Source of the DNA: a virus
Lineage: Duplodnaviria > Caudoviricetes
Reading direction: 5' to 3' (one strand)
DNA length: 62,756 nt
Virus record (IMG/VR): IMGVR_UViG_3300036793_000052
Location: 1-62,756 of that record
Below are positions 3,863 through 4,070 of this stretch, piece by piece. A model generated the notes under the pieces. It worked only from the letters and a program-made list of their open reading frames with translations. It was not told the origin of the DNA and did no database searches. The translations under genes and the position numbers were made by a program. Position 1 is the first letter of the stretch, and each line of letters starts with the position of its first letter.

Positions 3863-4015
3863 ATGAACGCAATCATCGCCCGCGACACCGAAACCGGCAA
3901 GTACCGTGTTCGGGTGCTCGGCACCGATACGGTTGCCGGTCTGTTCGCCGACGTCGCCGCCGCTGAGCGGTACGCAAACAACATCGGCGCAACCGTCGTT
4001 GACGTTCGCAGCTAG
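3863..4015 (+). CDS. small hypothetical protein (50 aa)
   Basis: AAGGAGATTCGAA-ATG. Confidence 0.75.
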   Translation: MNAIIARDTETGKYRVRVLGTDTVAGLFADVAAAERYANNIGATVVDVRS

Positions 4016-4070
4016 TCGAAACGCCTTCGGGCGTCTACCGGATCGGAATTCCGGTACTGATGAGACTTCC
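4014..4070 (+). ncRNA. Type II hammerhead ribozyme 1
   Basis: GTC-GAAA-CGCC TTCG GGCG-TC^-TACCGGA loop TCCGGTA-CTGATGA-GAC; loop GGAA can pair with 3' TTCC. Confidence 0.92.

Follow-up and report, generated by a model that had tools for sequence, protein, structure and literature searches.

What lies in the short gap between two small open reading frames (ORFs) at positions 4016-4093 of a soil phage genome, and what would it do there? The genome is the IMG/VR virus record IMGVR_UViG_3300036793_000052, and the window referred to below is this whole record (62,756 b, rated 100% complete), in whose coordinates all positions are given. Judging from the sequence, we put at about 85% the probability that positions 4014-4074 of the + strand form a functional self-cleaving type II hammerhead ribozyme that acts in intercistronic mRNA processing; its function would most likely be to cut a polycistronic early mRNA by self-cleavage. 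This first hammerhead is called HH1, and a second one, at 5366-5427, is called HH2. The annotation of the gap changes with this assignment, as it would hold a ribozyme that is missed at default Rfam thresholds.

Sequence and predicted fold of HH1

HH1 had been proposed in an earlier inspection of the bare DNA, here called the sequence-only reading. Its parts are as follows.

4014-4074, + strand: predicted type II hammerhead ribozyme HH1 (extent of the Rfam RF02276 match; 4014-4070 in the sequence-only reading)
4015-4017, + strand: 5' strand of stem II, GUC, pairing with GAC at 4064-4066; C4017-G4064 is the 11.1-10.1 pair
4018-4021, + strand: core G12, A13, and A14 plus A15.1 (from the sequence, the Rfam alignment, and the core pattern)
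4021-4034, + strand: stem III hairpin, 5 bp, UUCG tetraloop; would be the 3' end of the upstream fragment
4035-4036, + strand: predicted cleavage site, C17 (C4035) / U1.1 (U4036), from its position in the hammerhead consensus
4036-4056, + strand: stem I hairpin, 7 bp, loop UCGGAAU; would be the 5' end of the downstream fragment
4045-4048, + strand: 5' strand of the pseudoknot, loop I bases GGAA
4057-4063, + strand: core CUGAUGA, C3 to A9 (from the sequence, the Rfam alignment, and the core pattern)
4064-4066, + strand: 3' strand of stem II, GAC
4067-4070, + strand: 3' strand of the pseudoknot, tail UUCC, forming a 4-bp helix from tail position 0

The three core elements are found exactly where they had been placed: GAAA at 4018-4021, GUC at 4033-4035, and CUGAUGA at 4057-4063. 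They agree with the type II core (C3 U4 G5 A6 N7 G8 A9, G12 A13 A14, and H17) in that HH1 has CUGAUGA, GAA at 4018-4020, and C4035 as C17, and they follow the type II order of GAAA, stem III hairpin, GUC, stem I hairpin, and CUGAUGA, with both ends leaving through stem II. None of the stems contains a mismatch. Stem III carries its UUCG loop (4026-4029) on 5 bp (A4021-U4034, C4022-G4033, G4023-C4032, C4024-G4031, and C4025-G4030), the 7-bp stem I runs from U4036-A4056 through A4042-U4050 and closes on the loop UCGGAAU (4043-4049), and the open stem II of 3-4 bp consists of C4017-G4064, U4016-A4065, and G4015-C4066, with A4014-U4067 as an optional fourth pair. The pairs next to the core, judged by acceptance rules taken from the portion of PMC3088659 drawn on here, are all canonical: G10.1-C11.1 (G4064-C4017), A15.1-U16.1 (A4021-U4034), and U1.1-A2.1 (U4036-A4056). 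The suggested pseudoknot also exists as a complementarity between GGAA in loop I (4045-4048) and UUCC directly 3' of stem II (4067-4070); type II hammerheads have at least 4 bp between loop I and the bases 3' of stem II, and HH1 has 4. The core, the three stems, the open stem II, and the position of the pseudoknot thus all fit the type II identity, from which catalysis is predicted.

The placement had likewise been read correctly. The upstream ORF, 3863-4015, ends in the stop codon TAG at 4013-4015, so that the first two bases of HH1 are the AG of this codon, and HH1 ends just before the next ribosome-binding site (RBS), with the Shine-Dalgarno (SD) sequence AAGGAG at 4081-4086 and an ATG at 4094. 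HH1 is intergenic and lies on the sense strand of an operon of small genes, and the flanking ORFs display the coding pattern of this phage in the GC content of the first, second, and third codon positions (GC1, GC2, and GC3).

The search with Rfam hammerhead models that had been suggested as a check was favorable in one respect and unfavorable in another. Rfam Hammerhead_II (RF02276) matches 4014-4074 over its full length (model positions 1-66 of 66), but the score of 33.3 bits is under the gathering score of 37. The E-values are 3e-5 when 301 b are searched, 0.0064 when the whole window is run against 4227 families, and 1.5e-6 for RF02276 alone on this genome. A default Rfam scan lists only HH2, because the score of HH1 lies under the gathering score, which is a database inclusion rule and no property of the ribozyme itself. 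A covariance model treats pseudoknot positions as plain sequence; the shortfall of HH1 probably stems from its shorter stem III, in which five consensus positions are deleted, and from pseudoknot letters that are off consensus. HH1 has every testable feature of sequence and structure of a type II hammerhead and misses only the curated cut-off of Rfam.

The core words are rare in this genome. The pattern CGAAAC..GTC..CTGANGA occurs at two sites in the window, HH1 and HH2, versus 0.17 expected, and none of 100 shuffled sequences had two or more. The minimum free energy (MFE) structure of the isolated 61 nt is the hammerhead three-way junction (-19.2 kcal/mol). When HH1 is folded in a 191-nt context, the MFE structure keeps the junction, with pair probabilities of 0.81-0.97 for stem III and 0.81-0.95 for stem I, and no structure competing with HH1 is seen.

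HH2 lies on the same strand of the same operon, 1.35 kb downstream of HH1.

5366-5427, + strand: second type II hammerhead, HH2 (Rfam Hammerhead_II, 51.5 bits against the gathering score of 37, E 1.1e-7)

It has the core CUGAAGA, a stem II of GUC (5367-5369) and GAC (5417-5419), the 5' side AGUCGAAAC, and a 5-bp pseudoknot between UGGCU (5398-5402) and AGCCA (5420-5424); its cleavage is predicted after C5389. HH1 and HH2, two same-strand hammerheads around a short block of phage genes, flank three + strand ORFs of 62, 281, and 46 aa, with 1354 nt between the predicted cleavage sites (4036-5389). Other ribozyme classes and further hammerheads were not found in the window at E <= 5; three other matches, at E 0.86-2.7, fall far under their thresholds. 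The intergenic stretch 4283-4357 was considered as a decayed third hammerhead and rejected: outside the leader of the following gene, its best alignment to HH2 is the 7-mer AGTCGAA, which 259 of 2000 shuffles equal, and 144 of 2000 shuffles align to HH1 as well as it does.

A perfect 10-nt palindrome, CGGAATTCCG (4044-4053, + strand), runs from loop I into the 3' strand of stem I and includes an EcoRI site. Such a palindrome could fold into a short hairpin of its own or bring two RNA molecules into contact as a dimer; in the folding prediction, the 7-bp stem I prevails.

The subtype in IMG/VR contigs and in cultured Streptomyces phages

A search of IMG/VR with a pattern of the features common to HH1 and HH2 yielded 90 stretches (loci L004-L093). 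Pseudoknots were counted in 80 unique copies, HH1 and HH2 among them, and stems in 77 unique copies counted without the tail. The loop I/tail helix reaches at least 4 bp in 72 of the 80 copies, compared to about 21% with the tails of other members and about 17% with shuffled own tails, and it begins at tail position 0 or 1 in 77 (position 0 in 35 and position 1 in 42). A pseudoknot of exactly 4 bp, as in HH1, is found in 23. Stem III has 64 different inserts among the 77 copies, and yet at least two extra pairs form in every one of them and at least four in 73. The 1.2-2.2 pair is G-C in 47 copies, A-U in 20, G-U in 9, and U-A in 1, and is never unpaired. Several copies may share a locus: the AGUC...GAGAC subtype is present in three copies in L028 and in two in L041.

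The arrangement seen around HH1 recurs in the subtype. Among the 76 copies with enough upstream sequence, the stop codon of an upstream same-strand ORF (at least 45 aa) overlaps the initial base or two of the ribozyme in 49, versus 169 of 5271 control AGTC sites taken from these loci (odds ratio, 55). Downstream, 72 of 77 copies are followed within 200 nt by an ORF (at least 40 aa) whose start codon has an SD-like word; the median distance from stem II is 26 nt, and HH1 has 27 nt. HH1 is a textbook example of the stop codon/ribozyme/RBS arrangement. The overlap with the stop codon is not universal, as HH2 begins 19 nt past its upstream stop. The term “stop codon” is absent from the main text of Perreault et al. 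2011 (PMC3088659), whose supplements may show stop/RBS spacing or examples from actinophages.

The 66 distinct downstream ORFs are diverse and mostly without a function assigned by family; the top PHROG, a single-strand DNA binding protein, accounts for 6 of them. The portion of PMC3088659 drawn on here agrees with this diversity in that the identities of genes flanked by hammerheads are not constant. A general link between the subtype and anti-restriction genes was rejected, as the 25 most frequent PHROGs of these 66 ORFs include no anti-restriction family.

Comparison of HH1 and HH2 with phage records by blastn led to unannotated spots in Streptomyces phages. In phage R4 (NC_019414.1, 41776-49461, - strand; L097), Rfam finds 9 type II hammerheads, all above threshold, and in phage SqueakyClean (MF766047.1, 42112-49352, - strand; L098), it finds 11, of which 8 are above threshold and the others score 36.5, 32.9, and 31.1 bits. 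All of them are on the gene strand, within a stretch of ~8 kb in the small-gene arm, and CGAAAC, GU, and CUGA-GA are invariant in all 20 copies (a MAFFT alignment of the 20 misplaces stem I indels). Because the SqueakyClean array includes full-core copies at 31-36.5 bits, sub-threshold scores like that of HH1 occur among evident members of the class.

By coordinate comparison, 10 of the 11 SqueakyClean copies fall in annotated intergenic gaps, and of the 10 hammerheads directly after an annotated gene, 2 start at most 1 nt from its stop, with gaps of up to 46 nt. Three tiny annotated coding sequences (CDSs) of R4, gp60.1, gp67.1, and gp75.1, sit on hammerheads, and a hammerhead also overlaps the start of several other CDSs; these are probably mistaken gene calls. 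Publications on hammerheads in actinobacteriophages or Streptomyces phages were not found in a search that did not extend to supplements, the one match being a study on aminoglycosides. Both phages are cultured and genetically tractable, and with 9-11 copies each they make the function of these elements testable by mutation.

No RNA run is listed for this DNA. For HH1 itself, one DNA run (X1) may be the source sample, and a second soil metagenome run (X2), from a different study, contains identical pieces corresponding to 3889-4075 (0 differences, covering all of HH1), 4440-4602, and 5463-5715; thus, the same phage is present in more than one sample.

The bracketed genes, the proposed mRNA processing, and competing readings

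The genes on either side of HH1 and those between the two hammerheads are as follows, together with the hairpin downstream of the operon.

3863-4015, + strand: upstream ORF, 50 aa (listed as ORF 3800-4015; GC1/GC2/GC3 of 0.65/0.47/0.76, like confident genes)
4069-4096, + strand: repeated leader CCACTGC-N5-AAGGAGATTCGAA-ATG of the downstream gene
4094-4282, + strand: downstream ORF, 62 aa, first gene of the bracketed block (GC1/GC2/GC3 of 0.54/0.43/0.67)
4358-5203, + strand: 281-aa ArdC-like protein (ArdC N-terminal domain plus a weak zincin-like C-terminal part)
5206-5346, + strand: 46-aa ORF, last gene of the bracketed block
7455-7493, + strand: terminator-like hairpin, 18 pairs followed by the T run TTTTTGTT (terminator scan)

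The start of the 50-aa ORF was set at 3863 because an exact RBS motif, AAGGAGATTCGAA, occupies 3850-3862. This motif precedes six ORFs of the + strand block and is exact in five of them. The GC1 > GC2 < GC3 pattern of confident phage genes extends to the ORFs 3863-4015 and 4094-4282 (GC3 of 0.76 and 0.67, respectively); of the three ORFs that overlap HH1, two are without it (GC2 of 0.65 in one and GC3 of 0.50 in the other), and GC1 is low (0.45) in the third. A coding explanation for the HH1 stretch was dropped on the basis of the RBS motif and the GC pattern. Pfam and PHROG families matched neither the three overlapping ORFs nor the flanking 50-aa and 62-aa ORFs nor the 46-aa ORF; because the flanking small ORFs are also without a family, such searches cannot separate overlapping from flanking ORFs. 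The 281-aa protein matches Pfam ArdcN (E 7.7e-7, 29.8 bits, cut-off 22.6) and PHROG 7245, an anti-restriction protein (E 2e-14), whereas its matches to Peptidase_M78 and MPTase-PolyVal are under their cut-offs.

Our reading of HH1 as a processing element runs as follows. Small genes of the + strand, probably early ones, would share a polycistronic mRNA that covers ~3.2-7.5 kb and includes HH1. On the emerging RNA, local hairpins would form first at stem III, capped by its UUCG loop, and next at stem I, transcription of CUGAUGA-GAC would close the 3-bp stem II, and the tail UUCC would pair with GGAA of loop I, keeping stems I and II parallel. In hammerhead cleavage, the 2'-OH of C17 attacks the adjacent phosphate, which leaves a 2',3'-cyclic phosphate and a 5'-OH; here, the 2'-OH of C4035 would attack its own 3' phosphate. 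According to the mutational analysis in the part of PMC3088659 drawn on here, the loop I/tail pseudoknot is required for fast cleavage.

The stem III hairpin would then close off the upstream mRNA 20 nt past the stop codon, where a 2',3'-cyclic phosphate would remain. U4036, bearing a 5'-OH, would be the first base of the downstream mRNA; the stem I hairpin would begin there, with the SD sequence of the next gene 25 nt farther on. Together with HH2, HH1 would define a processed three-gene mRNA: cuts at 4035/4036 and 5389/5390 would release 1354 nt (4036-5389) with three ORFs, including the ArdC-like anti-restriction gene. Non-stop mRNAs would not arise, because each upstream piece would end at least 20 nt after a stop codon. 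The downstream pieces would each begin with a stem I hairpin and a 5'-OH, followed by the standardized leader and RBS. The preferred substrates of the 5'-end-dependent RNases E and J carry a 5'-monophosphate, and hairpin-capped cyclic-phosphate and 5'-OH ends should resist 3' exonucleases and 5'-monophosphate-dependent RNases. Decay, and perhaps translation, of the 1354-nt mRNA would be uncoupled from the neighboring cistrons, and blocks of cistrons would gain stabilities of their own. The analysis shows the anatomy of HH1 in sequence and predicted structure, its statistics, its genomic context, and the covariation across the family; we infer the production of the RNA, its cleavage, and the effect of its hairpin-capped 5'-OH and cyclic-phosphate ends on stability.

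A number of results speak against this reading. The score of HH1 is below the curated Rfam threshold, and the folding energy of 4010-4075 is ordinary (z = -1.25, with 26 of 200 shuffles at least as stable). Stem II has just 3-4 bp and a predicted pair probability of 0.23 in the 191-nt context. The pseudoknot of HH1 has just 4 bp, two of them A-U; because 1088 of 5000 shuffled tails also reach 4 bp, it counts only jointly with its position. The predicted unpaired probability of the SD sequence barely responds to cleavage at HH1 (0.46-0.48 in precursors versus 0.45 in the 3' product) and falls at HH2 (0.43-0.44 in precursors versus 0.21 in the 3' product). Unmasking of the RBS by cleavage was dropped and is not claimed, because the predicted accessibility is unchanged at HH1 and lower at HH2.

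The comparative data have their own limits. The subtype statistics describe the subtype and are no independent test of HH1, because the search pattern came from HH1 and HH2 themselves and the copies are not phylogenetically independent; many of the contigs come from one metagenome, and HH1-type covariation is seen only across paralogous copies of the subtype. An orthologous locus was not found by blastn of 3400-6400 against phage records. Nor was a related operon found by protein-anchored scans of viral contigs with the 281-aa, 62-aa, and 50-aa ORFs, by scans of metagenome and genome contigs with the 281-aa ORF, or with a pattern joining the ribozyme 3' half to the phage's own RBS leader. The sole ArdC relative found, in L003 (the same contig as L094; 41% identity), is not accompanied by a hammerhead at E <= 1.

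Four other accounts of HH1 have to be weighed. The first, which is a variant of the processing reading and no alternative to it, makes cleavage conditional: a ribosome terminating on the upstream ORF would cover the 5' part of HH1, and translation of that ORF would gate the cut. The enrichment of stop codon overlap in the subtype, in which HH1 shares, suits such gating, and the portion of PMC3088659 drawn on here raises regulated cleavage in phages as a possibility. However, genome compaction alone can explain the overlap, HH2 starts well after its stop codon, most SqueakyClean copies do not abut one, and the 191-nt context contains no competing structure. We regard gating as improbable.

Decidedly improbable, too, is that HH1 is a decayed or very slow hammerhead whose two hairpins remain only as mRNA structure. 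Its score is sub-threshold, against 51.5 bits for HH2, its pseudoknot belongs to the shortest class common in the family and taken singly is compatible with chance, and slow phage variants are reported in the part of PMC3088659 drawn on here. Those variants, however, carry core changes such as A6C, and HH1 has none: its core does not deviate from the consensus at any position, and the core-adjacent pairs are all canonical. The lost bits appear to trace to the shorter stem III and a covaried pseudoknot, and a helix of exactly 4 bp is shared with a sizable minority of the family.

A third account, which we consider very unlikely, concerns the fate of the released RNA (4036-5389), which would become a circle with the help of two ribozyme halves that match. 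Its 5' end would consist of the 3' half of HH1 and its 3' end of the 5' half of HH2, and the two could rebuild one complete hammerhead and so bring together the 5'-OH and the 2',3'-cyclic phosphate, to be joined by the reverse reaction of the ribozyme or by a host RtcB-type ligase. If so, the ArdC-like anti-restriction cassette would be expressed early in infection from a circular, exonuclease-resistant mRNA. The stem II strands of the two hammerheads are indeed identical (GUC 4015-4017/GAC 4064-4066 and GUC 5367-5369/GAC 5417-5419), but a GUC/GAC stem II is common to the whole fetched subtype, and stem II differs between some neighboring R4 copies. In the systems of PMC3088659, as far as the portion drawn on here describes them, circular or spliced products were sought and none were found.

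Finally, a chance resemblance, with two GC-rich intergenic hairpins (mRNA stabilizers or a terminator) that happen to have hammerhead-like words beside them, would account for the ordinary folding energy and the score under the curated cut-off but is hardly credible given the E-values of 1.5e-6 to 0.0064, the 18 bases of core words in the right order and spacing at 2 sites versus 0.17 expected, the lack of a T run after the hairpins and of any site there in the terminator scan, and a second bona fide copy, HH2, in the same operon.

Known systems and the surrounding phage genome

If HH1 processes mRNA in this way, how unusual would it be? Type II hammerheads of bacteria, phages, and metagenomes constitute RF02276 (Perreault et al. 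2011, PMC3088659); those with a pseudoknot flank prophage genes, including ardA, and cleave in vitro and in Escherichia coli, according to the portion of that paper drawn on here. The part of PMC8782182 used here describes three type II hammerheads near phage genes that cleave in vivo in Desulfovibrio vulgaris. The pseudoknot, clusters of such hammerheads between genes of phages, and an anti-restriction gene with hammerheads on its flanks had all been reported by 2011 (PMC3088659), so that the kind of element that HH1 represents has long been known, and HH1 itself is an ordinary member of a well-described ribozyme class that is common in phages. A review notes that processing of polycistronic transcripts has been suggested and that the roles of bacterial self-cleaving ribozymes are largely elusive (PMC6765202). 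The stop codon/ribozyme/RBS architecture and the arrays in Streptomyces phages are modest leads on the role of phage hammerheads.

With the RF02276 family, HH1 shares the core, an open stem II of 2-4 bp, capped stems I and III, a pseudoknot of at least 4 bp, and a sense-strand intergenic phage context. It differs in its short stem III with a UUCG loop, in a GGAA/UUCC pseudoknot that is not of the consensus UGG/CCA type, and in its score of 33.3 bits versus 37. A parallel in gene content is the ardA cluster of Agrobacterium tumefaciens, where, according to the portion of PMC3088659 drawn on here, hammerheads also bracket a short block with an anti-restriction gene and the proposed role is the cutting of long phage transcripts into gene-length mRNAs. 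In contrast to that cluster, the window has an ArdC-like rather than an ArdA protein, two ribozymes rather than three, and another host lineage. The D. vulgaris hammerheads, as presented in the part of PMC8782182 used here, have the same type II topology, lie near hypothetical or phage-like genes, and include two copies close together; their 2',3'-cyclic phosphate and 5'-OH ends have been mapped by cyPhyRNA-seq, whereas HH1 is known from DNA alone.

R4 and SqueakyClean resemble the window phage in being actinobacteriophages with intergenic type II copies in a same-strand small-gene arm and an anti-restriction gene nearby (R4 gp72, OCR-like). They have 9 and 11 copies in ~8 kb, against 2 in the window phage, and their stem II is mostly GGC/GCC or GCC/GGC, in contrast to the GUC/GAC of the window. 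Outside the ribozymes, blastn of 3400-6400 detected no DNA similarity between the window and these two phages.

RiboJ-type synthetic insulators offer a functional parallel. RiboJ is an engineered part derived from the hammerhead of a plant satellite RNA; the hammerhead removes the upstream RNA and leaves a hairpin-capped 5'-OH leader before the RBS, which makes expression of the downstream gene independent of the upstream sequence. The parallel to HH1 is a functional analogy only, as the folding predictions gave no unmasking of the RBS.

The window, a complete tailed phage of 62.7 kb, encodes proteins with PHROG matches to portal, large terminase, tape measure, minor tail proteins, endolysin domains, and DNA polymerase/primase, as well as a DUF732 protein (6323-6679). 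The portal is at most 51% identical to portals of cultured phages. Its matches comprise 461 records, mostly from phages of Actinobacteria (292 of Mycobacterium, 99 of Gordonia, 16 of Streptomyces, and others), which makes an actinobacterial host probable. The - strand carries most of the large genes, and HH1 lies within a + strand block of small ORFs that runs from ~3.2 kb to the hairpin at 7455-7493, which is probably the intrinsic terminator closing the small-gene operon. A sigma-70 promoter scan of 2000-9000 found 0 sites, a result that is uninformative for a probably actinobacterial host.

The leaders of the small genes are themselves repeated. CCACTGC-N5-AAGGAG occurs in 4 copies, versus 0.02 expected, and a leader of ~36 nt, CCACTGC-N5-AAGGAGATTCGAA-(C)ATG, is present on the + strand at 3832-3867, 4063-4098, 4326-4361, 5422-5457, 5611-5646, and 6292-6327. 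Its conservation 5' of the SD sequence could reflect a standard translation-initiation region, a protein-binding site, or cassette duplication.

Two weak matches on the - strand lie far from the operon. The motif class RAGATH-32 owes its name to an association with twister and hammerhead genes, and the match at 30180-30241 is at chance level (21.5 bits against a gathering score of 41.8, E 1.3), with a good fit of the 3' hairpin and the UAAGUCA tail. The other is a long hairpin, rich in GC, that lies at 15990-16081 between a pair of - strand ORFs; it weakly matches the actinobacterial small RNA Ms_IGR-7 (25 bits against 45, E 0.86) and is probably a terminator.

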